DNA of 64,000 nt, from positions 49,786,001-49,850,000 of the forward strand of contig CM060734.1 of assembly GCA_030704615.1 (NCBI GenBank). The letters are read 5' to 3'. Within the stretch, counting starts at the first letter, position 1; each line of letters starts with the position of its first letter. The DNA comes from Takakia lepidozioides. Taxonomy: Eukaryota > Plantae > Bryophyta. A program made the position numbers and the translations under genes. The notes under the pieces were generated by a model, which worked only from the letters and a program-made list of their open reading frames with translations, searched no databases and was not told the DNA's origin. This document shows positions 15,058-47,800 of this stretch, piece by piece.

Positions 15058-15059
15058 AG

Positions 15060-20700: not shown

Positions 20701-22297
20701 GCTGTGATGTTATGTTTGGGTAATGGAGATAAGATCTTGGGTTGGGGAGAGGGGGTAAGGATGGAAGGGAGGGGGCGGAAGGGAACAATGGAAGGGGGAA
20801 GAGAGATTGATACTGGGTAGTGGTCGGCTATCAATGTGAATATGGCTGTGGAGATAGGACGGGATCTCAGTGCTGGTTTTGAGATAGAAACCATCAAGGA
20901 GGCTGAGAGAGTAGTGGAGACCACCTTGCCTGGAGTAGTGGTGATCTGCGGGTATGTAGCTAAAGTGGTGTTGTTGAGTGAACTTGGCCCAATCATGATC
21001 GGAAGGGAATGGGGGTTGGTGAGAACCTTTACAGGAGTGTCCAAGGAGAGCAATATCTCTGTTGAAGTCGCCAGCAAGAATGTAGTGGTGATGCTGCTGA
21101 TCAGGGTGGGTAATCATATTGGAAATTGCAAGCTTAATATCTGGGATTAGTTGGAGGTCATCAGTGTGGGAGGGCATGTATAGGTGAATGATGGTAATTG
21201 GGTGAAGAGCAAACAAATAAAGTTGGATAATTTGGAGATGGGAGCGAAGAGGGATGGGGACGTTCACCTTGGTGGTGGTGCTGGGAGAGTGATGGGTACG
21301 TAGGATGCCAATGGCAACGCCACCCCGGGTGGGGCAGTATGGGGGCCGAGCACCGCCTAAGGCATTGCGGAGCCGACAAAGGGTTGCCATACAGGAAGTA
21401 ATATGTCGGGAGTAGCTTATTTATGTATGAACTGTTAGGGCGGTTGGTTTGTAGTTTAGTTTCTTGTAGTAGAATAATGTGCGGGGAGATGGAGTCTGTG
21501 AGAAGGTGTATGAGGCTTTGTATACTAGAGGCCATAGAGCCCACGTTCCACGTGATGATGTTAAGAGAGTTGGTACTTAGATTGTAGGCGGAGGAGGAGG
21601 GGTCGGGAGAGGGGGGTGTAGGTGCATTTGAGTGAGTAGGCAGGGGTGGGAGGGGTTGGGGGGGTGGAGGCAGGGGGAGAGCCGTGAATCCAGGGAGAGG
21701 GGTTATTGCCTTTAGGGTGGCAGAGAGGATATCATTGGATAAAAATGAGAACTTATTAGAGAGGGCTGGCAAGTCGTGAGTCGGGGAGGTAAGTGAGGCA
21801 AGATGGTCGCCTAGGATTGTATGGACCACTCCGGGTTTGGATTGTAGGAGTTGAAGCGAGGAGTGTAATTCAGAGAGATGGTGTGGAGGGGCTAGGTAGT
21901 TGTTGGGGAGCGGGGGCAGTTTATGTATGTTGCGTAACAGAGAACGGGTCTGGGAAAGGGAGTGAGATTCAAAGTAGATATCACATGTGTCTAGTAGCGG
22001 GGAAATAAGAATGATGAGGGCAAAGATGATGTGTTGGGTGGGAGACACCTTGAGTCTGTGTGTGGCATGGGTGAGAGCTGGGAGAAGGCAGGCAGGGAGG
22101 CCAAAGGTGGCGATTTGGTGTGTAAGGGAAGTATGATGTGTGGGGTTGGGGGGTTGAGGTTTTGGGAGGAAAGGGGTGAAGTGGTCAGAGAGATGTCGGT
22201 ATGGGTGTGTAAGGGAGATGGTATTTTGTTGGAAATATAAAGCATATCTATCTTGTGAGTCAGAGGATAGTTGAAAAATGATATCATCTATAGAAGA

Positions 22298-22351
22298 GGG
22301 TCCTGGATTTGGGTGTATGTCACCACATCTGAGGAGGATGAGGTCAATACA
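22298..22351 (-). other. 2A-like (StopGo) motif CIDLILLRCGDIHPNPGP upstream of the APE domain
   Basis: Matches GD(V/I)xxNPGP, with H in place of the consensus E. Confidence 0.7.
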
Positions 22352-25300
22352 GGTGTCTGTGTAAGCGGTGTCGGTTGAGGGGGGATGATGGTAGTAATGT
22401 TTGGATTTTAGGGGGTATAAATGGCGGGTACCATGTGGATGAACGGCTAGGGAGAGGGGTTCAGAGTGTACTAGGTAAGGGATGTTAGGAAAGTGGGGGT
22501 GAGAGGGGTGTGACCAGATTGTGTGGATAGAGGGGTTGGGGGTTGGGGAGGTGGAACTAGTGGGCGATGTGTGTACGTGGAGGTCAATCATGGCGTTCTG
22601 AAGCGGGTGGGTTGGAGTGGGGGAGGGCCAAAGAGTGTTGTATAATAGAGTCGAGGGGTGGGAAATGTAAGATTTGTTTAGGGGTAGGGTCGAGATATAT
22701 GTAGTGTGGGGTTGTGGGGAAGATAATATCGAGTTATAGATAGTGAAGAAAGTGTTCGAGGGTAGTATCACAGTGTGGGCATTGGGGGGTGGGGTAGGGG
22801 ATAGGGCCAAGGAACAAAAGTTTTGGGATACTAGTGGAAAAAGAGTGGATGAGAAGTGGAGGTATGACGGGTGTATTTCCAAGGCCATATGATACGTCAT
22901 GGTGGTATGTTTCTTGATTGTATGAGTGGAGCGAGGGACTGTGGGAATATAGAGTAAATATGTGGTATCTATTGATGGGTGTGTAGGATTTGCCTAGAGG
23001 TGATACCATGGTATTAGTATATAGACGGTATTCGAGTGATAGTTATTAGAACCTGATTTGGGGTGTGTGGATTTTTGCATGGCGACATAATACGTCACCG
23101 TTTGAGGATTCTTGAGTATATAAATGGCACGGAAGTGTCTACTGTGGGAGTAAAAATTGAGCATATACCCGGGGGGTCAGGGTTATGATGGGCGCTCATT
23201 GAACCAAATATTGTATCTAGATGATGTAAATGAACGGTGTTTTGGGGTATGGTATTTGAGGGATGTTTGTGAGTAGTGTATACAAACAATATATATGGGA
23301 AGTGTATACGAGTGGTTAGCTGGAGTGTGGTCATAATGCACTGCATAATATAGGATGCAGTATGTGCGAGGGATGCACCATAGTAGTGTAAGATTGGAGT
23401 AGTGGTCTGGGGAGGTGAAGCAGGATATTGTATAAAAGCAGTGAATGTATGGGATATACTGTACACTTGGGGTATGATATAGGGTCTGGAGTATATACTG
23501 AAGTATTGAAGTGGTGTGAATGTATTTTGTGTGAAGTGGTGTAACAGTATCGCATAGGGAGAGTGATGGCGTGTCAGTAAAAAGAAGTTGGGAAGTGTAT
23601 GCAGGTGTGTCATCATATTGGTAATATAGTATGAGAATGTGTTGTGTGGGAGTGGTGTGAGGAAGTAGTGTGAGGGAGTGGTGTGAGGGAGCGGTGTGAG
23701 GGAGTGGTATGGTGATATGATGCTGGCTTGGATCCAGCAGTAAGTAAACCCCAGATGGGTATATAAAAAAATAGTTATCAAAGAAAATGAATTGGGGGTA
23801 ACAACCTAGCAACTTCATACTTAAAAAACAGCCAAGCTGTGTAACGATAATAAAAGCATAGTTAGGATGTGTTGTATAGCGGACGCCTGAAGCAAATGGG
23901 GGAGCTGGTGGTGTCGGTGTTGAGGTGCCCATCGGGGTGTCGGCGCATATGTGGTCAAAGGCAGGTGACTTTACTAAACATCTGAGGTCCAGTATGGCAT
24001 CCTTGTTATATGCTATTTCTTCATAGCTACCGAGTGGGGTCGAGAGCGTCAATGCTGTTGGTGGTGTGCGAGTACATGGGGGTATGCAGATAAGCCTGCA
24101 ACCTGCATCAAGAAGTGGGTGAATAAGATGATACAGTGGTGTTATGAGATCAAAGGCAATGTTATGTGAGTGCATCCAGTGAGAGTGGTGGTGTGGGAAT
24201 AGTACAATGGCGGGATTTATGTGACAAACATAGCTGCATATAGTAGTGCGAATCGGGTCTATACTATCCTGGGGGAGAACAACCGGGTATGTAAGAGAGT
24301 GAATTCCATGGACCAAAATAGAGAAAGCTTGATGGGTATCAGCGGTGTGGGTAGCGGGAGGCAGTATCAGTAAAGAACATGTAGGCAAACAGCATCAGCA
24401 GTGATAGGAAGAGCACATGAGCAAAATACCGTGCGGTTTCATAATTGACCAAAGGGATAGGGTGGAGCGAGTGCACCTGGCTGAAGCATCCGGGTTGTGG
24501 AGAGACAAGTGTGCTGGCTGATATGGCCAACGAACATACTTAGAGATGGCCAGACCAATGGGAGATCTGAAATGCAGCTTAGCAGCAGTAAAATAGGGAG
24601 CGGAGCTTTGTAAAGATAAATCCAACATATGAAAACATGGTTTATTTGATATAGTACATGTCCTTGAGACAAAGGGCATACAAGAAAAGAGAAAATTTGA
24701 TACAACTGCACTAGATACATGGCTTGATAAGGGCTTGTTGGGTGGTGCGGCAAAAGTCATAATAGTTTTCAAACTCTCGGCAGCAAAGAGCAATGTGCTA
24801 TGTGATATGGGTTCCACAGAGGCAAGTTGCCAAACATTATAAGTAGAGGGCAGAGTATACGATAGAGGCGCAATAGAGGTAGTTTTCAAGAGCTTGCTTT
24901 CAGGGAGCATGGTGCGGAAGGGTTCATGATACACATTCAGCATTAAGCTTGTGCCAAAGTTGGGCAGAGTATAAGTCACGAGCTTGTAAGAGCAAGAGAT
25001 AACAATTCTATAGAATGACACCAATGAGGAGAGTAAGATGGAACAAGGGCACCTTTGAGGGCTGTTGTATAACCAAAGTGCGTACAGTGGTTGGGCAGGT
25101 TGGGGGCGCTCCACAGTCACTCCCGAACATGGATGCTTGTTCATCTTCAGTAGCCAGTAGTACCGAGTAATGGTGAGCTGGGTTATGTAGTAGAATGTGT
25201 TATGATCAAAGGCAGATTGCACGTTGAATGAATTGGCTGCGTGGTTGAGGGGCCATGTGTTATAAATGGTGTCTCCCACAAGGGAGCGTTGTTTTAGAGA

Positions 25301-25379
25301 GAGAGCTTCTCGAGTGTGGCGGCAGATTTTGATAACAGAGTTGCCACTCAGATCGTTGTGTTGTGCAGACTTCATAGTA

Positions 25380-26690
25380 ATATTCGCCACAATTCCAGCT
25401 TTAATGATGTCAGGGTATGTGGAGCAAATGCACCTGAGAGTGGTGTGGTGGTGTTGATTTCGGAGGAGTGGGGAATTGGTCGGATGGCAGAGTACGCTGT
25501 GGGCGAGGCTCTGGCCTATAGCCGGTTGGGCACACAGAATTGCAGCCGACCAGCGCCAACATTGCTCGTGGATATCCGAAGCTTCTATACCACAATCATG
25601 TCGATCATAGCCTGCAATTATCGCACTCCAGGGAGCTACATCTGGTTCAGTCATATTGTAAGACACTTGACAAGCCTCGTTCATGTTCCCACATTTTGAA
25701 TACATGTCCAAAAGGGGAGTCTCCAGAATGATATCTGGTCTAATTCCAGCTTCAATGATGTCAGAGTGGACCTCCTGGCCCTTTCCCAGGGCTGCCAAAC
25801 TGGAACGCGCATTGAGAACCAAGATGAACGGGACATTGTTGAGCATTTGCACACTCCCATATTTGGCAAACATGTCAGCCAGGGCAGTCTCCAGACTGAT
25901 GTTCGGTGTCTTTTGAGCTAGGATGACACCGTCATGGACCTTTTTCGCCCTTTCTGAGGGTTGCAGGGCAGGTACATGTCAGTCCACAGAGTGGTGTGGG
26001 TGGATTCAGCTGCACATCTGGAGACAAGAGTGTTGCCCGTTGCTGCAACACCGGGGTGACACTGTTGGCAGCTGCAGCTTGACATGCATCCTTCATGCTC
26101 TCACATTTGGCATACATATCTGCAGGGGCAGTCTCCGGTCTGTTGAACACTCCCTTTTCATCATCAATGCACCTACATTTTACATACATGTCCATGAGGG
26201 TACTATTCAGAGTGACCTTTGGTACAATTCTAGCTTTGATAATGTCGCCATGCTCTATACCCTTTTCTAGAGCTGCCATGCTTGCACATGCACTGTAAAT
26301 GCACATAAACGTGCTGTGGTCGGGTTTCACCCCTTCCCCCAACATTTGATCATAGGTCTCCAAAGCTTCCATATCACGTCCCTGTTGCGCATACCCTGTA
26401 AGGGTCACATTCCAAGACACGACATCCCGTTCAGCCGTAGTGTCCAACACTCCCTGTGCCTCCTCGATGCATCCACAATTTGCATACGTGACCACTAGGG
26501 TATAGTTCATAATAACAGTCGGTACAATTCCAGCTCTGACGTGGTCGCTATTGATGATGTCAACATGAACAACCTTGCGCTTTACCAGGGCTGCCAGGCT
26601 TGCACAAGCATTGCAAATGCACACACATGCGATGTGGTTGGGCTTCAATCCTTCCACCATCATTTGATCATAGGTTTCCCGACATCTGTG
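25380..26690 (-). pseudogene. PLS-class pentatricopeptide repeat (PPR) pseudogene fragments
   Basis: LLDMYSKCGNMNEA, DVVSWNVTLTGYAQQG, GVKPDHSTFMCIYSACASMAALEKG; rearranged and degenerate. Confidence 0.85.
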
Positions 26691-27974
26691 ACAACTCCAA
26701 CTTTGACATGGCCAATCAGCCTGGCCTGCTGCTTCTGCTGTGGAGGCAGGGGTTGAGAAGGAAGTACCTCGAGCTTGAGATTGTGGCAGGTAGACACAGA
26801 CGCTGGCACAGTGTTGGCGAGAGTGCATTCATACTGTCTGGTGCAAGAAGCCACATAGTGCTTTGTAGAAGGCTTCACTGAGTCGTAAAAAAGGGGTGTC
26901 GGGCACAAAGTAGTGAGCACATAGCGATGTGAATGGTATGCTTGCGCGAGTATATCTGTCGCGTCGTAGCTCATTGCTTGATAAAAAGGGGGCAGGTGGT
27001 TGAGCTTCCAACTGTGAATGATGGGGTCCATTTCTGAGTGCCATCCATCAGCAGTGCAGGCCCGCAAACACTTTGTCTCAAGGGAGTTGGCAAGCTGACA
27101 ACCACGATGTGTGGAAGTCAGCCAGAAAATAATGCATAGAAAGACAACAATGTAATTTTGTGTCATGCCAGATGCCCACATCCTTGCTCTCCAAAAACTC
27201 ATCAAGAACGCCATATGCAGGAGCGCAAAAGTTAGGGAGCTGTAGCAGAAGAGATTTTTGTTCGGATTGAACTGGAAAAATACCAAAATCACCGGCGCGG
27301 CTTCTTCACCAAAGCAGACCAAGGTCGTCGGGCCTAGTACTTCGCCACCACGATCTAGGGAAGCCTGATAGTACTTTGTTCGTGAGTGAAGTTGCACATG
27401 AGCAAGCAAGCAGCAAGGGCACAAGATAATTTCCAAAAAGAGCTAGTACAATCAAATCGTCCTGAAAACCTGAAAGAAATGGCTTGAAAGAAGCGCCTAG
27501 GAGAGATGAGGGTCAACATAAGGGAATGAAGGGGTTGAGCACAACAGCTAGAGCACTGCATCAAAGGAAGCATCGAGTCGGACTATGGCGGCGGTCGTAG
27601 CTACACGCGCTAGCAGGTATTAAATAAGGAGCATCGCTAAAGAGGGTGAGAAAAAAACACGATAAAGAGGAAATAAAATAGCAGAACCCTAGATAGACAA
27701 TTTAGCGAAAAAGTCAGCTAAGAGTTGAGCGGGAAAGCGGAGCTCCGCGCTCCCGCCGGCCATTCCATCGTCATCACCTTGTGGTTATATACTGTTATAG
27801 TCCCTGGATATCAATTCCATTGTTTTGTTAAAGCCGAAATGTCCTACAGCCGGAAGATTATGACATGTTTGAAAAATTCGAAGTCGTGTAGGTCCTGGAG
27901 GTACATAGAGAAGTCCCTTGAAATAAAGTCATAAAATGCTGATACGACTGAAAAATAACAGACGTAAAAGTCGG

Positions 27975-29923
27975 GATCTGTTGTAGTGTAAAGTGCAAAT
28001 GCCACATCTTTTTTGATAGCTCTCATGAAAGCTCTAGCTCCAAGGAACAGCGGTTGAATACCTTTGATATTTCTACATTTTTGTCTTGCAGAAATTTTTC
28101 GCGATCGCCAGTCGATGTCAGGATTGTGAAGTACGAACCAGGGAAGTCCAAGGATCACAAGATTCGTTGGAGACTGGATGACGTTGAAAACAATATGTGA
28201 TGTTTGATCTGTAAGCTTCACTTCAAGTGGTCGAGTTTCATGGTCCACATTTCCTGATGCTAACGGTCGTCCCTCAATGATTTCAACGGGGGCCGAGAGT
28301 TTCTTCTTTACGAACGTTAAATTGTGTTGCTTCGCAAAGTTTTTGTCCATAAAACAAGCTGCAGCGCCTGAGTTCAAAAGTGCTTCTACAGAGTGCTTCA
28401 TATCTCGATTTTGCACTCTGATTTCTACTGGAACTGTGAAGCAAGGTGCATGGTCTGGAGGTAGAAAGAGACATTTTTTCGGTGAGGAATTTGTGGTGTT
28501 CAGCCACATGGTCCCTACTGTGACTGGACATCTTCATTTTTCGACCTCCTCGTATCGAACACTTGAGTTGCGCCCCGAGCTTTGAATCTTGTTGGGGCAG
28601 TTTAATGCTATGTGATCTTTTTCTTCGCAATAAAGGCATAATCCATTCGAGTGCTGTCTTTGTTTTTCTTATGGCGTCAATGGCTTGAATCGGACAACAT
28701 CAATCTGTATAGGATCACTACCGGATGTCTGATGGGTCGTTGTGTTTGGTGCCGTAGTAGCAGTGGCATGATGCGTCGTCGACCATCCAGATCGCTTCTC
28801 TTGACGTCTTTCGAACAAACGATTATCGCATGCAATGACTTGGGTGATGAATTCACTCAGTGTGCTCACGTTTGGCATTGTCAGCAATAAATCTTTTACA
28901 TCTTCTTTTAGCCCACATCGAAACTGACTAATGAGGCTCTTCTCATTCCAGTTGAGGTCGTATGCAAGTTGTCGAAATTCGGCAGCATAAACGAAAGGAG
29001 GACGTGCTCCTTGTCGAAGATTTCGCATCTTTGTCTCTGCAACTCTCTCTCTATCATTTTCTCCAAACGTTGCAGTGAACTTGGACATAAATGCTTCAAA
29101 ATTATATAATAAATGCGATTTTTTTTCTAATAGCAGTGCAAATCAAGAAAGGGCAGTGCCTGATAGAAGGGTGCCCACGAATCCCACTTGAATACTTTCA
29201 TCGGGGTAGCGTTGTGGATGTAGTGTAGGAACAGTCGTACTTGTTGAACAAAACCGCAAAATCTTGATCTCGTCCCATCAAATTTCTCGGGCATGCTGAT
29301 CTTTGGTTCTCTCGTAATTTGTTGAAGAGGAACCGTTGCAGTAAGAGTTGTTGCAGTAGGAACTTGTATGGTTAAAGATCCATTGCTCGACTCCTTTAAC
29401 TCTGAAATTTGTTGTTGCAAATTGTGGAGAACGTTGCCAAGATCTTGAGACTGATCAGCTTGCAATTGGGCGGTAGAGGTACGAAGTTCTTGCATCTGGA
29501 GTTGAAGACTTTGCAATGTGGCGACCATTTCCGCAAATGTGCATTCCATCTTAACTAACTAAGGAACAAACTTTAGTCTCGCCAAACTATCAAGGACGAG
29601 AACATGACTGAATACAAACAAGAGATCATACTAGAGGTACAAGACTTAACAAGAAGTCAAGGTCGGCGTGGCCGAATGTATGGTGGATAAACATGAATCA
29701 AGATTATATTTATAACAATGGACAAGAATACAAGATACTGGAACTCGACTCGAATACTGGAATGCTAGAAACTGGACTAGAGTACTGGAAGCTGGACTGG
29801 AGTACTGGGACTGGGAACAAGAATAGTTTGAACTTGTGTTGGCGAGACTGAAGAGTGGCCAGTCTAACTTAGTAACTTCTGGTATTTACTCCTGATAAGT
29901 TCGTCTGGGCTATGTTCGTGACA
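27975..29923 (-). mobile_element. 5' half of a second Ty3/Gypsy family (internally deleted 5' LTR, gag, knuckle, protease), truncated before RT
   Basis: LTR 29588-29923 matches 58985-59610; PEKFDGTRS; LRQG..YAAEFRQL; GLCLYCEEKDHIALNCP; ALLNSGAAACFMD; ILGLPW. Confidence 0.88.
29575..29585 (-). promoter_or_regulatory. Self-priming-type PBS TTGGCGAGACT, complementary to an 11-mer inside the LTR
   Basis: Lies 2 nt from the LTR end; its complement is at 29839-29849 and 59243-59253. Confidence 0.75.
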
Positions 29924-30038
29924 GAATCAGCTTCTCCAGCTCCTCCAGCTCTGCTTCCATTCTTGTTATTGCCCACAACAATGTCTCTCTTGGTATTTGC
30001 TGTGAATAATTTAGTGTCAGAGTTTGCCATCTATTGTA

Positions 30039-31040
30039 TTAGCTTCTCGTTTCTGCAGTCAATTGAGCATGAGTGTCGTTGAACTTGTACATAGTCCCCA
30101 GGGTGGAAATGCCAAACACCTGGCCAATATCCCCTCCGCGTATAGTGACATACCTCAATGTGTCTCGGTGTTGGGCAATAGCAAGATTCTCAAAAACCAT
30201 AGGCATGACTCTCTTAAACAACTCTGCCCGCTGGGCACATGCTTGTGTCCACATATCCGGATCATCAAGGTTGAGGACTACAACGGCCTCCCTGCGAATA
30301 GATGCAGGCAAATCCGGCTCTCGGCCAAAGAGAAGGAAATATGGTGAGAAGGAGGCAAGTGATGCTTGCTTGCTGAACCTGTAGCCCATGGCTAACCAAT
30401 GTACCTGAAGATCCCAATCTCCTAGGTGTCCCTTTTGCAAGCCATACTTGCGCAAACCCCTCTTCATTGTCTGAACCACTCTCTCTGCCAAGCCATCGGC
30501 CTCAGGATGATCCCGACAAGTGGTACGGTGGTCTATCAAGGCTTTATCACACAAAGCCTGAAACTCCCCCAAAAACTCTCTCCCTTGGTCCGTGAGTACC
30601 TCAGCTGGAGCACCGAATCGGCTAAGCACAGGATCCAGGAATGCATACGCAGCCCCCTCACTAGCCTTGTCAGGCAATGGAACCAACTCAATCCACTTGG
30701 AGAAGTGCTCTACCATCACCAACACATATCTGTGGTGACACATCGTCAGTGGCAAAGACCGTGCAAAGTCAAGACTCCACCTGTAGCCCAATCCCATGAT
30801 GGGTAAATGATGCAACTGTGGTGTAGGGGCGTTGAATGAAGCATGCACCCTGTCACACACCAAGCATCTAGCCACGAATTGTTGCACCTCTGTGTGCATA
30901 CCACGCCACCAATACTGCCCCTGCAGTAAACTATGAGTGTGTCGCATTCCAAAATGCCCCAACTCCTTATGGGCATGCCGTACTAACCGTGCACGCTGTG
31001 TTGGGTGAGGCACGATCCTCACCCGACCATCCTCCCACAC
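30039..31040 (-). CDS. Integrase (HHCC zinc finger plus DDE core)
   Basis: HKELGHFG..CLVC; WSLDF; EHFSKW; VLTDQGREF; HPEADGLAER; SPYFLLFGR. Confidence 0.92.
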   Translation of the reverse strand: MWEDGRVRIVPHPTQRARLVRHAHKELGHFGMRHTHSLLQGQYWWRGMHTEVQQFVARCLVCDRVHASFNAPTPQLHHLPIMGLGYRWSLDFARSLPLTMCHHRYVLVMVEHFSKWIELVPLPDKASEGAAYAFLDPVLSRFGAPAEVLTDQGREFLGEFQALCDKALIDHRTTCRDHPEADGLAERVVQTMKRGLRKYGLQKGHLGDWDLQVHWLAMGYRFSKQASLASFSPYFLLFGREPDLPASIRREAVVVLNLDDPDMWTQACAQRAELFKRVMPMVFENLAIAQHRDTLRYVTIRGGDIGQVFGISTLGTMYKFNDTHAQLTAETRS

Positions 31041-31718
31041 TCAAAGTAGGTGTATCCCCTCCCACTTGAACCTCTTGGCTCGTTGCAGGATCCAATCCCT
31101 CTCCTTGGCTGTCACACTAGCTGCCGTGTCTCCAGTGCGGAGGTAGTCCACCACAATCGAATCCTCATGTATATCTCTGGCACCACCTGGCTCATCACTA
31201 GCCTCAACTCCGTCTACAGTCATCCCTATTGTAGGTCCAACCTGACTTCCCGATGCCAAGATACACAAAAAAGTAGATGCATGTCATCTCGGCACCATCT
31301 CCTCGTCCGTCTCACCATGCCACCGAGCTCCAGTGTCATCCTGCTGGCTCGTGCATGGATTGCGACTCAATCCATCCGCATCCCTATTGACCAAACCCGG
31401 TTGATGCACAACCTGAACATGTCTCTCATGCTCATCCACCGTAACACGAGAGGCAAAGCAATTCCTGTAAGCCTCAGGAACCGCCGTATATGTCGTCTCT
31501 CTCCTCTAGTGACAATGGGTCCAATGTCAGGCTCCCAATTGCCCTTCGTAACTGCAACCTTAAGTCCAGCAGACTTAGAGGTAGAGGACGCGTCCCGTGG
31601 TTGCTATGCCGCAACCTCTTGAGCAGTACTCCCTACTTGCTCAGTCAATGACAAGGCCTCATCCTGCCCCATCATCTCATCCTTGAGGACCTCCTCAACC
31701 TAAGAAGAATCCCCAACC

Positions 31719-32981
31719 TCATCCATCACAGCCGCCTTGGCTGCCAACTCCCTCTAAACCTCGAGCACCTCCCACGTGTGCCATGGGATGTCTACACCCC
31801 GTGGTCTTCACCGGCTCGCCCCCACTCACTGCCTGTATCGTCTCGATAGGTAGAGAGACCGTCAAGGGAAGTGCACTCCGCACTCTACATTGCTCAGCCA
31901 TAGCCAACCTGATAATCCAGGTCAAGCAATTGAGATCCATTGCTTGCCCCAACACCTGACGACTTGATGCCTCTGAAAGAGAAGGCACCGCCGTGGTCCC
32001 AGTGGAAAAACCCATAGCCCGCTCTCGTTCGTCGGCATTAGGCTCCACTAACAGCTGCAACTGAGCATCCCACAGGAGGCTAGGTCCACTATCCCGGAAA
32101 GCATGCGATCCTGGGAAGCTGAGTAGTGTAGGTAGTGCTGCTCGTGGTTGACCCACCTTGTTGACCATTGCCAAAGGCAAACGGTCATCGTGTCTCACAT
32201 ACTGAGACTGCCTCCATGTGTCCAAAATGCTATCAACTGTGAGGTGTGCTGGCCGCTGCACCCCATCTAATGCATGCTTGAGCAGTGCAGGTGACATCAA
32301 GTTAGTCCACCATAACCGTGGACGATGAGCCCGTGACCCCACTACAGCTGCATCCAGCAACACTGCTGACCCAAGCCACGACCGGACTTGATGCACACTG
32401 GCCATCACCCTGGCCCGAGAATCGCCCATCAGTGGCACATTCTCCAAGATGTATGCTGAAGATATAGCCTGATGAAGCTGTAAGTGGCGCAAAACCCGCA
32501 CCATCTCCCAAAACAGACCCGACCTCGAGTTTCGCAATCCATTGCCATGCCCGGCTGATGAATGCCCTTGGCAGGGCCAACCTGCCACTACCAAATTAAT
32601 GGAGCCAATCCGCTCCAAATCCTGCGCCTCCAACAAGGAGATGTCTGCTGGCAAGGCCTGCTGATATCCACGAACCATAGACACCGGCAACAACTCAGGG
32701 TACTGCTGCACCAACTGAGTAACATGGCGTAGGGAGACGCATCGTGCAGTCTCATCCCTCTCCACATACAGGTAACGTCGTACTCGTACACCTGCCTGTA
32801 GAACAGCAGCCAACCCGGTGCTGATCCCGCCAAACAAGTCCAGAAGGCAAATGCCTTCATCCGGACACTGCCACACGATCGGTGTGGTGTCCAATGGTGA
32901 CAACTGAGGTGGTTTTGGTGTAATCCCCACACTGTCATCCTCTCCTGATGGTACAAAAGCCTCTACCCAGGCTTGTTGCAC
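31719..32981 (-). CDS. C5-cytosine DNA methyltransferase domain (DNMT3/DRM-like catalytic core) within the retroelement polyprotein
   Basis: Motif I LDLFGGI, motif IV AGWPCQGHS, motif VI ILENVP, motif VIII HRPRLWWTN, motif IX ERERAMGF, motif X VLGQAMD, all in one uninterrupted ORF. Confidence 0.92.
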   Translation of the reverse strand: MQQAWVEAFVPSGEDDSVGITPKPPQLSPLDTTPIVWQCPDEGICLLDLFGGISTGLAAVLQAGVRVRRYLYVERDETARCVSLRHVTQLVQQYPELLPVSMVRGYQQALPADISLLEAQDLERIGSINLVVAGWPCQGHSSAGHGNGLRNSRSGLFWEMVRVLRHLQLHQAISSAYILENVPLMGDSRARVMASVHQVRSWLGSAVLLDAAVVGSRAHRPRLWWTNLMSPALLKHALDGVQRPAHLTVDSILDTWRQSQYVRHDDRLPLAMVNKVGQPRAALPTLLSFPGSHAFRDSGPSLLWDAQLQLLVEPNADERERAMGFSTGTTAVPSLSEASSRQVLGQAMDLNCLTWIIRLAMAEQCRVRSALPLTVSLPIETIQAVSGGEPVKTTGCRHPMAHVGGARGLEGVGSQGGCDG

Positions 32982-33199
32982 ACGTCAATCAGCAACCCGC
33001 TGCAAATCCTTGCTCGAGCCCCACAATGGAGTGTGAGCAACCATGGCAGACAACTCTGCCATACCATACATGTCATCCTGCTCTCCCGGAGGTGACACAT
33101 CCTCTAAATGAGCGTTGCCCTCAAGCAACTCTCCAGGCCAACTCACTACAGCTGTGAATGCTGCCAGTGTTGGCATCTTGCCTCGCTGGGCAACCGTAA

Positions 33200-33620
33200 C
33201 TCCTCCTATGAATGTCACAGGGAACTACACACGCCGGCCCTCCCCTGACTGCCATCCAGGCCTATAGGAAGCTGACTCGTCCCAAAAATCCAGGGTGAAA
33301 CCCATGGGCTACAACACTGCCCCACCAACAAGGATATCGTACGAGACCGCGTCTGTCACAATGGCCTTGGCTCTCATCACCGAGCCATCTGTAGGATGAT
33401 TCGTTTGTAGTCGGATAGCCAACTCATGCCATGTCATGCCCCGAGCCTGCTCTGATCCTCCCAAAGATGTCTATATCTGGAAAAGGCACGGCTCCATATC
33501 CGCCTTCGTGAGGCCCAAGCTTGCAATAGCAGCTCTGCCCAACATCAATGGCTGAGCTCTCGAGTCCAACAAGACCCGCAGTGGCCAGTACCTCTTGCCA
33601 GCCGGTCCACTCAAACAGAA
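33200..33620 (-). pseudogene. Retropepsin-like aspartic protease of the DNMT element
   Basis: RVLLDSRAQPLMLG..SYDILVGG, in the same frame as the DNMT, with three TAG stops. Confidence 0.75.
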
Positions 33621-34411
33621 AATGTCATCCTGGTTGTCTAACATGACAACTCCAGGTGTCACTATGGCGCGCTCAATGGCTGGCCTAGCTGACAGCTTCA
33701 TCAACCTGGCAGCTGCAGCTTGCCATGGCGCCACCGTGGCAGTCTTGACCCTCACATCCGAGGATCCCTCCGGCACTACACCTCCCACTATCTCCGCAGA
33801 AGATGAAGTAACCTCCCCACTCTCACAGAGTGTAGCTGCCAGCCTGAACACCTCAGCTGGTCTTACCCCCGGCGTCGCAATCATGGTAACCGAGAACAAT
33901 GGAGCCTGACACACAGCTGTGGCCATCCCCAGCAACATACTAGCTGCCGTAGCCTTGGCAACACTAGGTAGTGGTACTGCCCGTGTAGCTCTCCCCAATG
34001 GCATAGTAACCTCCGCCTTGGTAACAGTCGGGCGAGAACTAGGTGCCATGGACGGCGTCGACACTGTCTCCGCCAATGTGAATGACTGAGGAAGCCTGGT
34101 CTGACGGCTTGCCTCCCCACGCTGTGGATCCAACTCCACCTCCGCACCCCGTGGCTCAGGAACTCGTGTTGTTTCTCGAGTCACTGCCGCAGCTGACTCC
34201 ACTTGCACTAGTGGTAGTCCTGCCCCGCACATAGTGGTAGTGGTGCCCCACCCACAGTGGTAGTGGTAGTGGTAGTGGCACCCCTTACTAGTGGTAGTGC
34301 TGCCCCGCACATGAATCCCATGCCTCCCATGTCTCCTCCCTCAGGAGCAGGAGGTGGACCATCCGGCCTTGGAGCCGGTACCACCTGAGCTGTGGCCATA
34401 GCAGCAAGCCT

Positions 34412-35773
34412 CTACTCTAGCTGCTGAAGCTGGTTAGCCATGCCTTGGTCACCACCCTGACCTCCGCGTCCTTGGCCATGTTGAGTTTGCCCTTGGCCTG
34501 CACCTCGTGCCTGGCCACCTTGTCCTCTCTGGGTTGCTCCACCTCGCCCCCGGCCATCATTGTTCCCTTGGAACTGGCCTGGGCGCAACTCAGGATGCAA
34601 ACCATAGCACTGGGCTTCTCCATGCCCGTACTTGCCACAATGCCCACACTGCAACTATGCAGGCTGTGCCGGTGCCAAACCATTGCCTCCCTCTGGGCAA
34701 TCCTTCTTGACATGGGGTCCTCCACATGTCCAGCACACCACATCCGCCCGTTGTTGGCTTGCAAATGAAGGGATAGACCCCTACATCTGAGGTCTTCTCT
34801 CTCCTTCCCTGGGCTTCACCTAAGCTCCCTTGTTGCCTTGAGCACGTTGAGATAGTGGCTAGCTAGGAGCATGACCACTACCCCGTGGTGCCTCCTTAGC
34901 AAATCCTACCATGACCACTCGTTCCTCCACCATGTTGAGCTCTATCCGCTCTGCCAGCAAAAACACATTTGCTAAGGTGGGTTGGGCTGCTTGTAGGAGA
35001 AATACATCCCACACCCTTCTCCTCAGCTCCTTGTCCAATATCCCATACCGGAATTGGACTGCCTGAGCCTCCGTAAACCCTTGGGTTACATTAATCAAGT
35101 GCCTCATGCAAGTGAAAGACTCCCTCAAGCTTTCAGTAGGCTTCCGTTGGAACTCTTGCAAGCTCCTCAACTTCTCTATCATCACTCCTTGGTAGTTCAT
35201 TCTCAACTCTTCGAAGAACTCCACAACAGGGTTGAAGGCAGGCACCGCCACTGGTGCTGGTGCAGCAATAACTTGGGTGGACGTCGTCGTTGCTGTACCA
35301 CTAGTCCCACTACTGCTCGTGGAAGCTGCTATTGCTGGTGCAGTTGCCAGTGTGGCTGTTGCCCTAGTGCCTCTAGTGCCTCTAGTGATGGAGACATAGT
35401 CAGGTGACCAGTACATCCTCCACTCCTCGATATCGTGCCCCCGCCTAAACTCATGGTAATCATCCATGGGCGGCCCTTCAAGGTGCTGAAACAGCCCCTT
35501 CCATGCCATGAAAGGCGTAAACAGTTGTGGATTGCGCATTTGCTGCAAGTCACACCAACTATCAAACTCTTGGATAAAATCATCCAACTCAATGGTGCCC
35601 ACCGCCCCAAAGTACCTTCGTGGCCCCTTGGTGGCTCCATACATCTCCTCCATTGTGTCCCACAACAATGGCAAGGAAACAACTTGCACTGCCGGTGTCA
35701 GTCCTCCTGATTCACAATCCGAATTAGAACCTTCCGTAGAAGACACAGGAGGTGAAGGTGGCCTAAACCGCAC
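34412..35773 (-). pseudogene. gag: Gag-like protein with CCHC knuckles of the DNMT element
   Basis: LDDFIQEFDSWCD.., LQEFQRKPTESLRE, CGHCGKYGHGEAQC, and a Q/G-rich tail. Confidence 0.7.
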
Positions 35774-38700
35774 ACCTCATCTCGTATACCCGCTAGTATC
35801 GCTGGTGCTCGTACCGGCACTTTCCCCAGCAACTAGTGGCACCTCCGTGTTGACAAACTGGCACTCAACCGGTCATGAACCTGTCTCTAACCACCTCTCT
35901 ACAAGGTAACCGGGTAGAGAACCTGATGCGGCTTATGGTCTGGAATACTAGGTTCCTAACATAGCCTGCACCTGCATCTGCATCCACCTCAGGCACTCCT
36001 ATGGTTGGCTGGTCATCACCTCCAACCTCACCACAGGAGAAACAAAGATGGTCTGACTGGTCATCAATCTAGCCTCACCATCGACAGCATGCTCTAGGGT
36101 GGGATCGGCGATCAAGCCCGAGTCCACCACCTATAAAATCAAGCGCCCACACAAAACTAGCATGGGGCACAATCAAGCATGCAGGTGTGGAGGGGATCCA
36201 AACACAAGAATGAAAACAACAACTCCCCCACACCAAAAATCTCTCCACAGTGTCGCTCCTGCAACCCAGCCCAAACCTGGATTGACTCTTGCCTCCACCT
36301 ACGGAAAAGTCTTGGCCTACAGAGAAGGTGGAAAGCTACGAGGAAGGGAAACTAAAGCAATGCCTATCCCTAGGACGCTCTCATCCCAACACCCTCTTTT
36401 TTTCCTCTCTTTTCTCACTTGCATGACCATGAGAGCATCCTGTAGACACTCCTCAAACCGCCCTCCACGAGCTCATGAAACTTGGCCTCCAAGGCCCCAT
36501 GCAAGCCTCCATAGGGTCCGCCAGTGCCTCCTCTTGTCCACCAGTCATTCCTCAGATTGGAACCACCTCAGGAAACCATGTCGTTCACTGAAGGTTCAAA
36601 GATGGAGCAAATAGAGTTACATATAGGCCCCAACAACATTCTGTCCAAAGGAATTACCTGCAGGCTGGTCTTCCCCATAGTTAAGAATTGGGCTGAAAAC
36701 CCGAAAAGATTACATGCAGGGAAGTAATCCCCTTTGTTAAAACGCAATAGGGAGGCAATTCCGACTTTTTTGCCGGATCAGCTAGCTCAAAACCGTTGTT
36801 CTTCAGAGCCCAGCCTCCCCATCAAGGTCCCACGAAACGAGTGATTTTTTTTTTTTTTTTTTTTTTTTTTTCACTCTTCCTGTTCGCGGCCTTCCGTGGC
36901 TCCAACCGCCACTACACCTCACGGCCCGCCCTAGGCGCTCGTTGGCCACGGGCTGCCTAGTGATACCCCGTGGTACCACTCCCACGAGCCTTCACGGCCC
37001 GCCATCCCCACGATCCGGTCACCGTGCCCACCCGTTGTGTCCGCACCACGACTTCCAACGGTCACGGTCAACCATCATGACCTGGGCTCGTGGTATCTCG
37101 TGATACCGCCCCAACGGCCCATCACGGCCATTATTCTCTGTTCCTTGAAACTCCCAATGAGTTCCCATGCGTTCCCGAGGCGTTCCCACGCGTTCCCGAG
37201 CTGGGGTTTGCTCCTGTACTTGCTGCCGATGAGCTATGGCTTCTGCAAAGCCATCAGCCCCATCGCCTTGCACTCTTGAGCTCTCACGGCCCACTAGAAG
37301 CACCCCTAGCTCAACAAGCAAGCCATATGCTGCCCAACAAGCTCCCTTTTCTCCATGAAGCTTACAAAAATAAATATGAAAATACACACATTTACAACCT
37401 TGGTGTACTTGCAGTTCTACTGCACATCCCCTAGCTCTAGGGCGCCTCGTTGCTGCCCTTCCAGCCCCGCTCTTGCCACTCCAAGAGCCCTTACACTACT
37501 GAGTTTCAGATTGAAACTCCAACTCAGCACATGTTTCACAAGTGCACTGATTTGCACACAAGAGGGACCAGCCCCCTCTCTTCACTCATACCTCTTCATG
37601 AGCTTGACGCTGAAGCTCCCAACGGGCTGCGATGCATCCCCTCGTAGCTCCACCATTCAGCTGCTCCTCATCTACCCGCAACAACTAGTTTCGGGCAGAA
37701 ATACCTGGAGTTCATCATGTCATCTCCAACCTGCAACACGCTAGTTTCCCATGCGCAGCCCACATTTCTGCAGCTCCTTAACTCGGCCTACAGCTGAAGA
37801 AGACGACCATCAGTTTGCCCACTCGTGGCCAACATCTCCTCCGCTTCACACTAGAAGCCCAAACTTGGTTGCCATAACGTTGAGCTATGCAACGCCGCTC
37901 TTCAACATAGGCTACCCGCCTCTCTATCCATGGCAAACCTGCAACATGTTCGCCTTTGCACTCTATCCGCTTTGGATAGGCTCATGCACGGCTCCCTGCA
38001 CTCTAGGTTGAACCGCTTCTCATGATCTGAAAACACAAGTGCTACAACTAACTTGAACCTGGCACTCACAGACTCGAGTTGATCTTTCTCGAGTGATAAG
38101 GAAATGAATGATACAAGCACACAAGCTTTCTCAAACTCACATACTTGCACATGAAAACATCATTCATATATTAAGTCGAGCCAAGTGCACCCCACGCCAT
38201 GGGGAATCCACACTACGGCGCCATAGCTAGACGCGTGAGGCTCAACTCGAGAAAGATGAGCCCACTGCGATCTGCCGTGAAGATAACAACGTCAGGTGCC
38301 CAAACATGTATTGGTCCCTGGATTGACACTTGGGTCAATCCCAAATGTCAATATATAAAAGCTAGCTATTTCCTAGCTAACTTCACACTAGTGGTAAAAT
38401 AACTTGACATATTCCTATACCTCTAGAAATATACTTAGGCACCTTTATATGAGATAATACGTTGAACAAAGAGTCATGGTAAGGGGGCTTGTTCAACTAT
38501 ACTATTTCATTAAATAATATAGCTATTGTTCATGTCCAGTTTGCATTTTTTTTTGGGGCCCTGCGGTCAAAGCCCGCTAAGTAGTAAGTAAAGTACTTAC
38601 AAATAGATGCTAAGAAGGAGGGCCTTTATCTCCCTTGAGGGCAGTGGGCCTGACCCTGTCAAGTGGCGGTGTTATCTTTAGAAGTGATAGACTTATTGAA

Positions 38701-39214: not shown

Positions 39215-39702
39215 AACTCTTCATTGCAACTACCCTAGGAAAGTTGATATCCGTGGTAGCATACCAAAGATGTCAGCTGGCATGTCTTCTTGAAGCAGGA
39301 TACGAATCAGTGTTTTTTATTTTTTATTATTATTTTTTCTGAAAAAAATAGCAAAAAATAGCCATATATTGTGTTCATTCATTGAAATTTGGAAAGGGTC
39401 ATCCTCATACATACTTTCACCCATTGATATCCTCCACATTGCACAAATTCATCCATTTCTTATTTTTTATTTGGAGAAGTTTGGCGATTAATTCAGCATT
39501 TGCGACAAAATAATTTATTTACGTATTCTTTGTTTTGTTGTGGATTCGAATTTGTTTTGTATTTTGGATCAACAAATTTAGATTTTTAGAAGGTTGTTGA
39601 TCTATGCGGACATCAAAGTCCTCCACCGGCAACTTTACTACCAACTGCTACAATCTGATATCAAGTACGTATGTGTCTCCGTTCGATGGTTACAATAGAA
39701 TG
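39215..39702 (+). repeat. Orphan third copy, in inverted orientation, of the KP4 upstream region
   Basis: 39520-39700 is the reverse complement of about 42280-42470 and 43490-43670; 39240-39310 matches the reverse complement of 42868-42935. No coding sequence follows. Confidence 0.75.
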
Positions 39703-42207: not shown

Positions 42208-43000
42208 GATGAAATGTAATGGTAAGACGAAGAAATATTACGAGGAGGTTGCTTGTGTTTGCTTGGTTGCGAGTCTAATGTATTCTAGTGTAACCTTCGA
42301 GCGGAGATGTATTATACTTGGGATCATGTTGTGATAGCTGGTAGTAAAGTTACCGGTGGAGGATTTTGATGTCCGCATAGATCAACATCCTTCTAAAAAT
42401 CTAATTTGTTGATCTAAAAATACGAAAATATTCGAATCCACAACAAAACAAATAATACGTAAATAAACTATTTTGTCCCAAATCAGAGTTTTTTTAATTC
42501 CAAAAATAGCACGAGTGGCTACAAAGTTTTGCAAAAAATAGACATATATTCTGTTCATCCATTCAAATTAGGACATAATCTTCCACATCTGTATTTTCAT
42601 CCATTCATATCATCCATATTTGGCGAATTCATCTATAATTAATCTATTTTTTTGGAGAAATTTGACGATTTCACCCATGAAAAAATGGAGAATTTATAAC
42701 AAATATTCTTTTCTATTTTTTGAGGTCGCCATTTAGCAAACGTTGTCCCAAAAATACTGTTATTTCAAGGATGAAATCGCCAAACTTCTCCAAATAAAAT
42801 GAACATAATATACGGCTATTTCCTACTATTTTCCAGAAAAAAAACAAAACACAAAACAAAAAATGTTGATTTGTATCATGCTTCAAGAAGACATGTAGCT
42901 GGCATCTTTGGCACGCTATCACGGATATCAACTTTCCTAAAATCTTTTGTTACATTCATATCATTGTCACCGTGTTTGCTTCAGGAGATTTGGTTTTTGC

Positions 43001-44174: not shown

Positions 44175-44875
44175 ACAACCATATGCTCGTGGTGCCGCCA
44201 CTATGCTGGTGTGTGATCGATGCTCAAGAGGTTGGCACATGGGATGCTTGACACCAGCTCTTGAGAGGGTTCCTGATGGAGATTGGTTATGTCCACACTG
44301 CTTGGGATAGTGGCAGTGGATATGACTAGTGGCAGCTCACAAGACATGGGAGGCCAAGCTCATAGGAGTCAATACCCAAGATCTCAGGCTCAAGTTCACA
44401 GGTTGCAAGACGGCGACTAACGATGGGGCAACTCTTGTACCCAGCCTCTTGATCTATTGAGTTTGAGTGTAGTAGGGACAGTGGTGGAGGACTTAGTGAG
44501 GCTATGGCCACTATCAAATCTTGTGGCTACCTGGACTTAGAGGGACCTAAGCACCAGTTAGGGGGGCGATTGTGATGGGCTAGTGGCAGCCTAATGATGG
44601 ACTAGTGGCTGCACTAGTGGTGGCTAGTGGCAGCCTAGTGGTTGGACTAGTGGCTGTATTAGTGGTGGCTAGTGGCAGCCTAGTGGTTGACTAGTGGCTG
44701 CACTAATGGTGACTAGTGGTTGTCTAGTGGCAACCTAGTGGTGCACTAGTGATAGACTAGTGTTTGGTGTGCACATGTGTTGTGTGGTTTTGGACAACGA
44801 TGTAGTTGTGTAGCGATATGTATGCGCACGACAACTTTCAAGTTATTTTACCACTAGTGTGAAGTTAGCTAGAAA
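44175..44875 (+). mobile_element. 3' end of a PHD-finger Gypsy element: PHD, 3' UTR, PPT and the start of an LTR at 44571 with CTAGTGG tandem repeats
   Basis: MLVCDRCSRGWHMGCLTP..VPDGDWLCPHC*, then AGGGGGGCGAT|TGTGAT. 44839-44875 matches the reverse complement of 38370-38407. Confidence 0.8.
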
Positions 44876-47800
44876 AACAACACCATCCCTTATGGCGAAC
44901 CATCACGAAGACCCTCGATTCCCGGTGATGAGTCGCGATGAGTCTTGGCCCACCACCACGGCCCATTGGACCGTGATGAGTCCCAAGACTCCCCACGACT
45001 CCCACCACAAGGTCTCCGCCCCATGGTGAGTCCTATGTCACCTCCACTAAGACCCACTACGCTACCACCACCCCTCGTGGAACCACCCCCACCGCAACCC
45101 GGTGTGCGGGGCTCCACCTAGTGAGCGCCTCCGCCTCCTTGAGTGCCTTGGGCACTCAAGGGTGCTTCAGCCCCCGCACCTATTGTTGCCGCGCCCCCCA
45201 CCATAGGGGCAGCCCCTCTTGTGTCCTGACTTCCTGCCCTCAAGGCAAAGGGCCGCGACACACACCCCTACCAATAGGGAGTCAATGTCCTCATGGACTT
45301 GTCCATTTTGTAGAAACGAACATCCAAGTTGTGACGTCCCACATCAAGGAGTTTGTTTCCGCACCATGGCGTCCCATGGCTAAGAACCAAACTCCCACTT
45401 GACTCTACTCTCCACTAGCTAGTTCGGCCGACTTCCTCCAAGTCCCGGCCAAGGGTGGAGCCTCTCAAGCTCCTCCCAGTGCACTCTTCTTGACCCACTT
45501 CAGGGCCAAAGAACGATCCTCCCCGAGGATCGAATCGCCTTACTGCAACAACATTTACTTGCGACCGCTCGTGATGTCGCTTTTGGCATCACCTTGAGCA
45601 AGGGTTCACCTTGAACCCTTTTTGACTAGGAAGATAACCTTGAACCAATCGTGCGCCCCAATCACTACAATTGGGTCCGCCTTGGAATGTTGGCCTGAGG
45701 TACGAGAACATGCCGAAGCCGCACTACGGCTTCGTCCTGAGGCTACACGATTATAGTACATGAACAGAAGCACGTAGCTTCCGCGTTAGCCCGCACTACA
45801 AGGCAACCCCCTCGGTAGCGCAGTTATAGTATGCGCATGCGCCAGGTGCGCACTAGCACGTGAACTCCTAAAGAAGGCGCAAGTTTCCTTGTCCCTTGGA
45901 TGGGAGTGACCCGATTTTGGCACTGCGCAAACACACAATTAATCCAATTTACCTCTTCCACTTTTGTGAGCTAGCATGCATTCTACACACTAGCCAACCA
46001 TACCATGCATCACCATTCCAACAAAATAGGAAGCACAATATTTGGGAACCATTTCATTTATACCAAAATTTGTACAATACAGTTTTGCAATCGGATTCCT
46101 GAGCTAGCTAAGCCGGGCTAAGCATGCATTTCCTCCCCCACGCTCCAAGGTTGATGTCCCCATCAACGCTTCTTCCGCTTTTGAGGTCGCCCTTCGAAAA
46201 CTGCAACCGCCTCGGATGCATTCCCCATTTCTGAGGCACGCACCCAAGATGCCTCCACATGATGATAACCCTTCCATTTCACGAGATACTCCAATTTCTT
46301 GATTCTTGAACCTCCTCGACTAAAGCACTGCCTCCACCTCGTACTCAGGTTCATTTTCATGATCCAACAGCAGAGGTGGCGGACGCAACACTTGAGGCCG
46401 ATTCGGACGCGCTTCATCTTTGAAGTAAGGCTTCAAAAGGGAAACGTGGAATACCGGATGCACTTTGCTGTTTGGCGGCAGCTCCAACTCATACACGTCC
46501 TCATTCATAACCTTCTGGATGCGAAAGGGTCCCGCATACGGAGGTACGAACTTCGGACTCACTTCCGGAGGTAGTCGAAAATTCTTGATGTTCAACCAGA
46601 CCTCCGTGCCTGCCTCAAACTTGACTTCCCTCCGTTTTCGATTTGCTTGCCGTTCATACCGTTTCCTAGCTTTGGCGATGTTGTACTTTGCGAGCTTCAA
46701 CAAGCGCTCGCGTTCCTCCAACACCGCTGCTGCTGCCGGTTCCTCTACGTCTTGGGCGGCCCAACTTGTCGGCACTAGAGGTGCTTTTCCATAGACCAAT
46801 ACAAAAGGGGAAACACCTGTTGCAGAGTGTTTTGTGTTATTATAACAGAACTCTGCCGCGTCCAAGTGCTCCACCCAGTCCGATTGGCCAAAAATACTCT
46901 TTCTTCAAGAGTGCCGCGGTGCGTTTGGCTCCGCCATGGCCCACAAGCGGGCCATCATGGCATTCTCTCAAGAGACTATCTCTGATCCATCCCTTCGACA
47001 CATAGAGACATTTTTGCTTATACCGGAGCAGTCCATTTTGCAAGTGGAACTGCGATTTAACCCCATCCTCAAGTCCCGCATCACGGACTTCGTCATCTCA
47101 TCCTTCCGGTAAGCCTTCCGGATCTTCCTTTAGAGCGCCGTCTCGCCCCTGTATACCATCATGAGCTGCTGCTTTCTATTTAAAGCATCGGCCACCACAT
47201 TGTCCCGTCCCGGTTTGTACTGGATATCCACGTCGAACAGTGCCAAAGTGTCTTGCCACCTAATTTGTTTTTGGGACAACTTAGGTTGCGTGGCAAAATA
47301 CTTCACCGTGACATTGTCTGTGAACACCTTCACCGGGTTGGAACCAATATAGTGGTGCCAAAGCTCAAGGCAATGCACCACCACCTTCATTTCTTTCTCG
47401 TGCATAGGCCACCGTCGCTCCACTTCATTCAGTTTCTTACTTTCGTAAGCCACTGGACGTCCATCCTGCATGAGTACACCCCCAATTGCGAAGTCGGACG
47501 CATCTGTATGAATCTCAAATGGACGGTCGAATTCCGGGATTTTGAGGACTGGAGCTTCCGCCATCCGCTGCTTCAACTCAGCAAAAGCTTGGCCACAAAA
47601 TGTGTTCCATACCCAGACTTTGGATTTACACAGAAGGTCTGATAGCGGCCCCGCGATCTTGGCGAAATTTCTCACATACTTACGGTAGTAGGAGGCGAGT
47701 GCTAGGAAGGATCGCACTCCCGGGACCGAAGTCGGAGGCTCCCAGTCCAAGATCGTCCTCACCTTTCTGTCATCCATTTTTATCCCATCCTGTGTAATCA

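Follow-up and report, generated by a model that had tools for sequence, protein, structure and literature searches.

The window analysed here, 64,000 nucleotides of Takakia lepidozioides (GenBank assembly GCA_030704615.1, contig CM060734.1, positions 49,786,001 to 49,850,000, forward strand), carries on its minus strand a copy of a Ty3/gypsy retrotransposon that encodes a C5 cytosine DNA methyltransferase (DNMT). As the first-pass annotation of the sequence had described, a single frame runs from 34310 to 31719 and is broken by four in-frame stops (33473, 33311, 33227 and 32987). Its stop-free part, reported there as an ORF of about 420 aa with a complete methyltransferase core, spans 32984-31722, comprises 421 aa and contains motifs I-X. 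Upstream lies the gag region (34577-35653, minus strand, as are all parts of this copy), recognized by tblastn with Marchantia Mp4g09160 (P0121, 55 % identity) and including a CCHC zinc knuckle at 34648-34607. A short duplication (34207-34312) shifts the gag/protease frame in the window copy; in relatives, Gag, protease (PR) and DNMT form one frame, which is open in P0121 and in the metagenome locus L041. The spacer and aspartic protease (33170-34253, the lower end being approximate; Asp_protease_2 in relatives) contain the copy-specific stops 33473, 33311 and 33227, and the protease motif at 33572-33561 has DSR as its active site.

The DNMT domain (31872-32876) is followed at 31598-31606 by TAG CAA CCA in the frame of the reverse transcriptase (RT), a family-conserved stop and a candidate readthrough site closing ORF1. 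Further on, the junction of a deletion of about 1.28 kb lies at 31417-31451; in tblastn searches relatives aligned to an N-terminal stub of RT and picked up again at the end of RNase H (RH), and in record 20 of contig X9 the points 31451 and 31417 are separated by 1281 nt, where the window copy has the deletion. Frameshifts occur near 31785 (copy-specific) and 31471, and the final 20 or so codons of the 421-aa ORF lie beyond the first of these. The DDE integrase (IN; zinc-binding and core domains PF17921 and PF00665, 30090-31040) is truncated ahead of its C-terminus and PHD finger, the 3′ end being replaced by another gypsy element that starts at about 30089. No pair of long terminal repeats (LTRs) was found around the main copy, and a search for its 5′ repeat found none. 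The window element is a dead, internally deleted copy. The earlier placing of the methyltransferase between PR and RT/IN holds for the order of the family and fails for this copy, from which RT and most of RNase H have been lost.

The methyltransferase motifs follow in unrearranged order: motif I at 32840-32826, motif IV (WPCQ) at 32579-32568, motif VI (ENV) at 32444-32436, motif VIII (HRPR) at 32327-32316, motif IX at 32030-32007 and motif X at 31952-31935. The scan with PF00145 that had been suggested as a check gave a match at E 2e-11, and the best PDB matches by sequence were to DNMT3A (E 3e-9). An AlphaFold model of the domain (mean predicted local distance difference test score, pLDDT, 71.8; residues 211-265 poorly predicted) returned DNMT3A, DNMT3B or DNMT3C in all the top Foldseek rows listed, with a best E of 9e-15 and a template-modelling (TM) score of 0.58. 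The unrearranged motif order, the catalytic Cys, the Glu and the RxR all identify a DNMT3-type enzyme. The multiple exons or rearranged motifs of host DNMT3 and DRM genes were absent: the domain is encoded within a retroelement by one exon that has no stop, with its motifs in the standard order. The catalytic Cys was present in 45/45 aligned copies, 43/45 had the motif VI Glu, and the Phe and Gly of motif I were near-invariant. The two Arg residues of motif VIII were kept in 30 and 35 of the 45 copies and otherwise replaced by His, Cys, Gln or a stop, replacements that would be expected from CG deamination.

The DNMT is a constant component of this Ty3/gypsy family, with the order Gag-PR-DNMT-RT-RH-IN-PHD, and is almost certainly a real, conserved domain of it. 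The order recurred over 80 metagenome loci, many of which fall into a single subfamily or are repeat recoveries of a locus in several samples. A profile search yielded 482 clusters (50 % identity) at E≤1e-30, and among 139 newly listed proteins 97 combined the DNMT with PR, Gag, RT, RH or IN in one chain, whilst the other 42 showed only the DNMT. When contigs from four public runs were aligned to 29400-38400, gag, PR, DNMT and IN were similarly deep (X1, possibly the run from which the window itself derives, gave 67,285 pieces, and depth is not copy number). The relatives named in protein searches were from Calypogeia fissa (68 %), Marchantia polymorpha (64 %), Sphagnum, Riccia, Klebsormidium and Monoraphidium, the closest being the two liverworts and Sphagnum (64-68 % identity). 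No seed plant, fern, lycophyte, hornwort or Physcomitrium was named among the matches, most rows of which were unnamed. The land-plant lineage of DNMT-carrying retroelements postulated in the first-pass annotation is supported, with members in Marchantia, Calypogeia, Riccia and Sphagnum that are kin of the Klebsormidium element. It is not confined to land plants: the DNMT-bearing gypsy clade is wider and includes chlorophytes and charophytes. For the window itself, a land-plant host is indicated by the bryophyte-type relatives together with PPR and KP4-like genes.

Two architectures were distinguished. In bryophytes and Klebsormidium the DNMT lies ahead of RT; in Pleodorina, Tetrabaena and Haematococcus the order is RT-RH-DNMT-IN-PHD, with Volvox represented by a DNMT-IN piece. 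The DNMTs of this second group were detected with a purpose-built profile, Pfam having missed three of them. A Coleochaete transcriptome contained an RT-IN-PHD frame, and the window IN matched elements with a PHD finger from Haematococcus, Pleodorina, Tetrabaena and Volvox. In a DNMT tree of 62 rows, built by a quick method with a midpoint root and without host DNMT3 or DRM, the window grouped with Marchantia, Calypogeia and Sphagnum-type rows (support 100) and the RH-DNMT-IN rows formed a second clade (support 99). The groups of the RT-RH tree, which also lacked host DNMT3 and was left unrooted because the outgroup joined a long branch, matched these clades, and Klebsormidium P0170 was a deeper branch in both trees. 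The largest subfamily of the metagenome loci had a linker in common with P0153, a protein of Sphagnum fallax. In L060, the main copy had on either side of it (100-5500 and 17300-18700) DNMT-RT relatives of greater distance, at about 40 % identity, which points to several subfamilies in one host. In the chlorophyte-type protein P0223 a G-patch domain separates the DNMT from the integrase. Two members labelled cyanobacterial in metagenome bins (P0028 and P0499) are probably eukaryotic contamination, and viral contigs gave one weak, unrelated-looking match.

Selection on the DNMT was assessed by pairwise Nei-Gojobori comparison, as the ratio of non-synonymous to synonymous divergence (dN/dS). For three pairs between lineages the values were 0.14 (L041/L033; dN 0.034, dS 0.249), 0.13 (L041/L047; dN 0.165, dS 1.26) and 0.19 (L024/L001; dN 0.287, dS 1.52); the window/L001 pair gave dN 0.216 and dS 2.77, with dS near saturation. 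The DNMT is under purifying selection between lineages. Selection across copies, which had been proposed as a test, was evident between lineages (0.13-0.19); among close decayed copies the median was 0.5-0.67. In these copies the RT gave similar values (0.4-0.6) and the spacer before PR higher ones (0.85-1.1).

The stop after the DNMT was examined in those 52 of the 80 loci in which the end of the DNMT and the beginning of RT are both present. A stop occupied the aligned position in 48 of them (37 TAG and 11 TAA); the four counted as misses had it shifted (L061 and L079) or replaced by a sense codon (L037 and L065). CAR followed directly in 46/48 stop-bearing loci. Among land-clade rows, 43 had a stop at the conserved codon and at most five at any other codon from -40 to +129, and the length of the DNMT-RT linker was a multiple of three in 40/52 loci. 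The most complete example, L041, has 1369 open codons that include PR and DNMT, then TAG CAG TTA, then 1047 in-frame codons for RT, RH, IN and PHD, and Marchantia gene models of 1278-1281 aa terminate 78 aa past the DNMT. At the window stop (31606-31604), the nine bases TAG CAA CCA showed no difference in host-family contigs among the 40 of 52 differences listed, whilst the other two linker stops of the window copy differed from nearly all of these contigs. The methyltransferase had been assigned to the Pol frame; because the conserved stop separates it from RT, it lies instead on the Gag side, as the last domain of a Gag-PR-DNMT ORF1.

UAG followed by CAR YYA is the readthrough signal of tobacco mosaic virus (TMV), and the family resembles this virus and BNYVV (beet necrotic yellow vein virus), as type I readthrough is outlined in portions of PMC2754532, in having UAG plus CAR YYA and, downstream of it, a polymerase in frame. 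The strict CARYYA was present in the window and in 5/52 loci. Over lineages with DNMTs of 50-70 % identity, the second codons of the strict matches were CCA, TTA and TCA, so that the nucleotide motif has been kept while the amino acid changes. Unlike the viruses, the family has CAA CCC in its largest subfamily. The stop is probably read through to produce RT-RNase H-IN-PHD.

The ends of the family are unusual. The element had been called an LTR retrotransposon, and its members have split direct repeats instead of an LTR pair. Complete copies (L051, L059, L060 and L072) have a repeat A on the left and B-A-B on the right; L028 and L067 also showed right-end B-A-B, and L020, L031, L017, L019 and L025 had single-B right ends. 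The A|B junction was precise in all complete copies. As in canonical Ty3/gypsy elements, which have the PR-RT-RH-IN order with a DDE integrase, the termini are TG...CA (B begins with TG and A finishes with CA), a polypurine tract lies directly 5′ of B1, and 4-bp target duplications accompany the insertions, exact in 5/7 two-ended loci and with one mismatch in 2/7. Canonical elements differ in that the two ends of this family are unlike (A on the left, B-A-B or B on the right) and it lacks a tRNA primer site: none of 24 copies had TGG within the 16 nt that follow A1. None of the seven duplications had a central CG, which departs from the NCGN preference given for REXdb Phygy elements in portions of PMC6317226. 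The B|A junction was near-palindromic with a 2-nt spacer (GACA-NN-TGTC-type) at 10 loci, among them the distant L041, L047 and L075; a motif match at position 3445 of L050 lay outside the element and was excluded.

Two further remnants in the window retain 3′ ends. The first (57341-58561, minus strand) has the IN C-terminus, the PHD finger, a polypurine tract (57869-57861) and the repeats B1 (~57860-57775), A (~57772-57427) and B2 (~57426-57341), and its 57860-57341 part also bears the palindromic B|A junction. The other (44183-44833, plus strand), from a third copy, has the PHD finger, a polypurine tract (44561-44569) and one B with an internal tandem expansion. One and the same LTR-like sequence (27847-30089; 58984-59610) adjoins both the truncated integrase of the main copy and the remnant near 58 kb, and the remnant also contains inverted RH-IN and linker pieces (58564-58961). 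Inverted 3′ ends or internal inversions beside the 5′ region in L013 (6215-6447), L016 (6225-6457) and L045 (12557-13453) are possibly self-integration products.

With B+A taken as a single LTR, standard reverse transcription would yield BA-internal-BA; if its ends were joined and the resulting circle were cut at one B|A junction, the product would be exactly A-internal-B-A-B, and a one-LTR circle would give A-internal-B. The opening of a two-LTR circle by integrase at this junction is on balance our favoured route of integration. Circle junctions are used by IS3-family transposases and by foamy virus integrase. For the 16 nt after A1, the best complement in 20/24 copies fell at a common site, which lies 176 nt before A ends, with 16/16 pairing in three copies (L050 and L051 being one locus) against control maxima of 10-12. 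Reverse transcription self-primed from this site inside A is a candidate that we regard as evenly balanced; self-priming is mentioned for Tf1-like elements in the same portions of PMC6317226.

In the mechanism proposed, most ribosomes would halt at UAG-CAR-YYN and a minority would read through, so that Gag-PR-DNMT would be made in bulk and the DNMT packaged at the level of Gag, to be freed by the protease within the particle. The RNA would begin inside repeat A and self-prime on the 16 nt after A1, and plus-strand synthesis primed at the purine tract before B1 would give a linear cDNA with an LTR of B+A at both ends. Joining of the cDNA ends would form a two-LTR circle, which integrase would open at the palindromic B|A junction to leave A-internal-B-A-B. 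The DNMT would methylate cytosines, most likely in CG, on the extrachromosomal cDNA, and new copies would arrive pre-methylated, which could serve protection, host mimicry or self-restraint. Self-methylation of element cDNA, suggested at the outset, remains plausible. To the model as a whole, an ORF1-coded DNMT packaged at Gag level and methylating new cDNA, we would give about an even chance, and much the same applies to cDNA methylation as the putative role for which the DNMT is selected. The full conjunction (a green-lineage gypsy clade that is self-primed, integrates through circles, has a DNMT3 that methylates the circle and, in its land-plant branch, places the DNMT on the Gag side to be packaged in bulk) is put forward only tentatively. 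Part of this has a precedent, as SymbioDIRS-Dnmt3 from Symbiodinium methylated CG de novo in yeast (de Mendoza et al., PMC5890265, cited here and below for portions of its text).

Several observations tell against this account. The loci represent only about five independent lineages, and the relatives P0434 and P0471 had no detectable DNMT. The high dN/dS of close decayed copies was noted above, and ECQ replaced PCQ in 65/134 chlorophyte-type DNMT domains. At the stop, the Sphagnum-type subfamily (39/52) has CAA-CCC, which departs from the strict signal by one base and is followed by ATG, the 11 TAA loci all belong to this subfamily, and no conserved RNA structure was found 3′ of the stop (z -0.2 to -3.5). 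The pairing after A1 exceeded the control maximum in just 16/24 copies, and the single subfamily that yielded the self-priming candidate had no compensatory changes. Within a copy, B1 and B2 did not clearly resemble one another more than they resembled the B repeats of other copies. KnitGypsy-Dnmt3 of Klebsormidium nitens gave no methylation in yeast, a result that its authors call inconclusive (PMC5890265). CpG depletion was considered as a sign of self-methylation and rejected: the observed/expected ratio was 0.48 for the element vs 0.86 for a young gypsy element, but other window frames gave 0.38-0.64, so the depletion is not element-specific.

With the same anatomy and a Gag-side DNMT, RT-IN could instead come from a spliced or re-initiated message. 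This stays a rival to readthrough because the Sphagnum-type subfamily has CAA CCC ATG, with the ATG two codons after the stop, and it would also account for the gene models P0127 (Marchantia) and P0153 (Sphagnum), which bypass the stop region. However, the ATG is missing in L024, L031, L041, L047, L071 and the window, the skips in P0127 and P0153 start at different points, the linker stays in frame across lineages, and contig X9, whose RNA nature is a guess, crosses the stop unspliced; we consider such a message unlikely and prefer readthrough. For the ends, the arrangement A-internal-B-A-B could have been copied directly along a DIRS/Ngaro-like route in which the RNA extends through B2, with no two-LTR circle. 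The precise A|B junction of all complete copies fits such copying, and de Mendoza et al. call the Klebsormidium repeats DIRS-like (PMC5890265). The purine tract just before B1 and the TG start of B and CA end of A, as in one LTR, are less easily reconciled with it, and so are the DDE integrase and target duplications, no tyrosine recombinase domain having been detected in Pfam scans of family proteins. The single-B copies L020 and L031 fit one-LTR circles, though recombination between B1 and B2 also explains them. Direct copying is possible but somewhat doubtful, and integration through the two-LTR circle is retained.

As regards the enzyme, an abundant DNMT might act in trans on the chromosome, on the element's own copies, on rival elements or on the insertion site via the PHD-bearing integrase. 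Output at the level of Gag would exceed the need of one cDNA, the integrase bears a PHD finger across the clade, and host-benefit and chromatin roles are among the options listed by de Mendoza et al. (PMC5890265); set against this, the DNMT has no attached targeting domain, and in the chlorophyte clade it is flanked by RH and IN, where it would be a Pol-level product, which suits action on cDNA. Action in trans appears improbable. Less probable still is retention of the domain for DNA binding, with weak catalysis or none, for example to hold or mark the circle junction for integrase. The inactivity of the Klebsormidium domain in yeast would agree with it, as would the change of the motif IV Pro to Glu in many chlorophyte-type members, but human DNMT3B failed in the same assay too (PMC5890265), and the conservation of the catalytic Cys (45/45), of the motif I Phe/Gly and of the motif VI Glu argues for catalysis. 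Neutral capture of a host DNMT3 gene as a single event in the window copy, compatible with the death of that copy and with the dN/dS of 0.5-0.67 among close decayed copies, is refuted by the 482 clusters at E≤1e-30, by the retroelement domains in the chains of 97/139 newly listed proteins and by the coverage of the DNMT in host-family contigs, as even as that of gag and IN. Methylation of the new cDNA by a packaged DNMT is the role that we carry forward.

The nearest described system is KnitGypsy-Dnmt3, a gypsy element with DIRS-like split repeats in which PR and RT likewise flank an intronless, unrearranged DNMT3, and the DNMT is under purifying selection (Ka/Ks below 0.2); it is described as acquired in the K. 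nitens lineage (PMC5890265). The Klebsormidium protein KFL_009030040 (P0170) was 44 % identical to the window in DNMT and 55 % in IN. The family works like KnitGypsy-Dnmt3 but lacks its continuous Pol ORF: the Klebsormidium model is one PR-DNMT-RT-RH-IN chain, whereas the window lineage has the conserved stop after the DNMT, and its hosts are land plants, P0170 being deeper-branching. SymbioDIRS-Dnmt3 is also a retroelement-borne DNMT3, but belongs to the DIRS class, has a dinoflagellate host and is described as an independent capture (PMC5890265). Split direct repeats of the type A...B-A-B are found in the tyrosine-recombinase elements Ngaro, PAT and TOC1, from which the family differs in its DDE integrase and 4-bp duplications as well as in the recombinase-free Pfam scans. 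REM1 is reportedly a PHD-bearing gypsy element of Chlamydomonas. Such elements are mentioned in portions of PMC9940879 and PMC6673714, and Gypsy-7a_cRei of Chlamydomonas (PMC9940879; compared by description) is a green-algal gypsy with a PHD finger for which no DNMT is named and LTRs are drawn at both ends.

A 2025 paper mentions retrotransposon DNMT3 in streptophytes and dinoflagellates, in the portions available citing only de Mendoza et al. (PMC12344493). Marchantia and Sphagnum did not occur in the available text of PMC5890265 or in three supplement files (figures were outside the search), nor 'methyltransferase' in that of PMC6317226. In the open literature, searched for the most part at the level of titles (subscription journals, Repbase and theses were outside the search), no description was found of land-plant or chlorophyte members, of the DNMT-RT stop, of the A...B-A-B ends with palindromic junction and 4-bp duplications, or of the self-priming site. 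DNMT-carrying retrotransposons have so far been described from two algal groups. The Marchantia members, several of them annotated as Gag-PR-DNMT models of 1278-1281 aa, make their function accessible in a genetic model for which methylation mutants exist, and the conserved stop predicts the dose of DNMT. The permuted ends would imply a DDE integrase with a circle junction as its normal substrate; because of them, finders that rely on LTR pairs could miss the family, and its copies can inflate DNMT counts in bryophyte gene sets.

The remainder of the window contains other elements and decayed genes; an Rfam scan of the window gave no match. Two Tf2-like gypsy copies without DNMT (~9038-15793 and ~44880-51000, minus strand) are about 90-95 % alike, with LTR pairs about 98-99 % alike and CpG observed/expected ratios of 0.86-0.95, and the first has a chromodomain match. 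The region ~17300-24400 (minus strand), with strong G skew and RT and chromodomain remnants, is probably another gypsy element, and a decayed pentatricopeptide repeat (PPR) gene lies at 24398-26828 (minus strand; PPR_2, E 1e-12). Frames of 331 and 586 aa at 60354-63589 (minus strand) had no Pfam match and stand beside a SWIM finger; they are, at a guess, possibly from a Mutator-like transposase. A KP4-like gene (42207-41758, minus strand; Pfam Kp4, E 4e-26) begins with a signal-peptide-like stretch, is interrupted by a stop near 42090, and lies within an AT-rich stretch with inverted repeats on either side (39236-39667 and 42315-42939).

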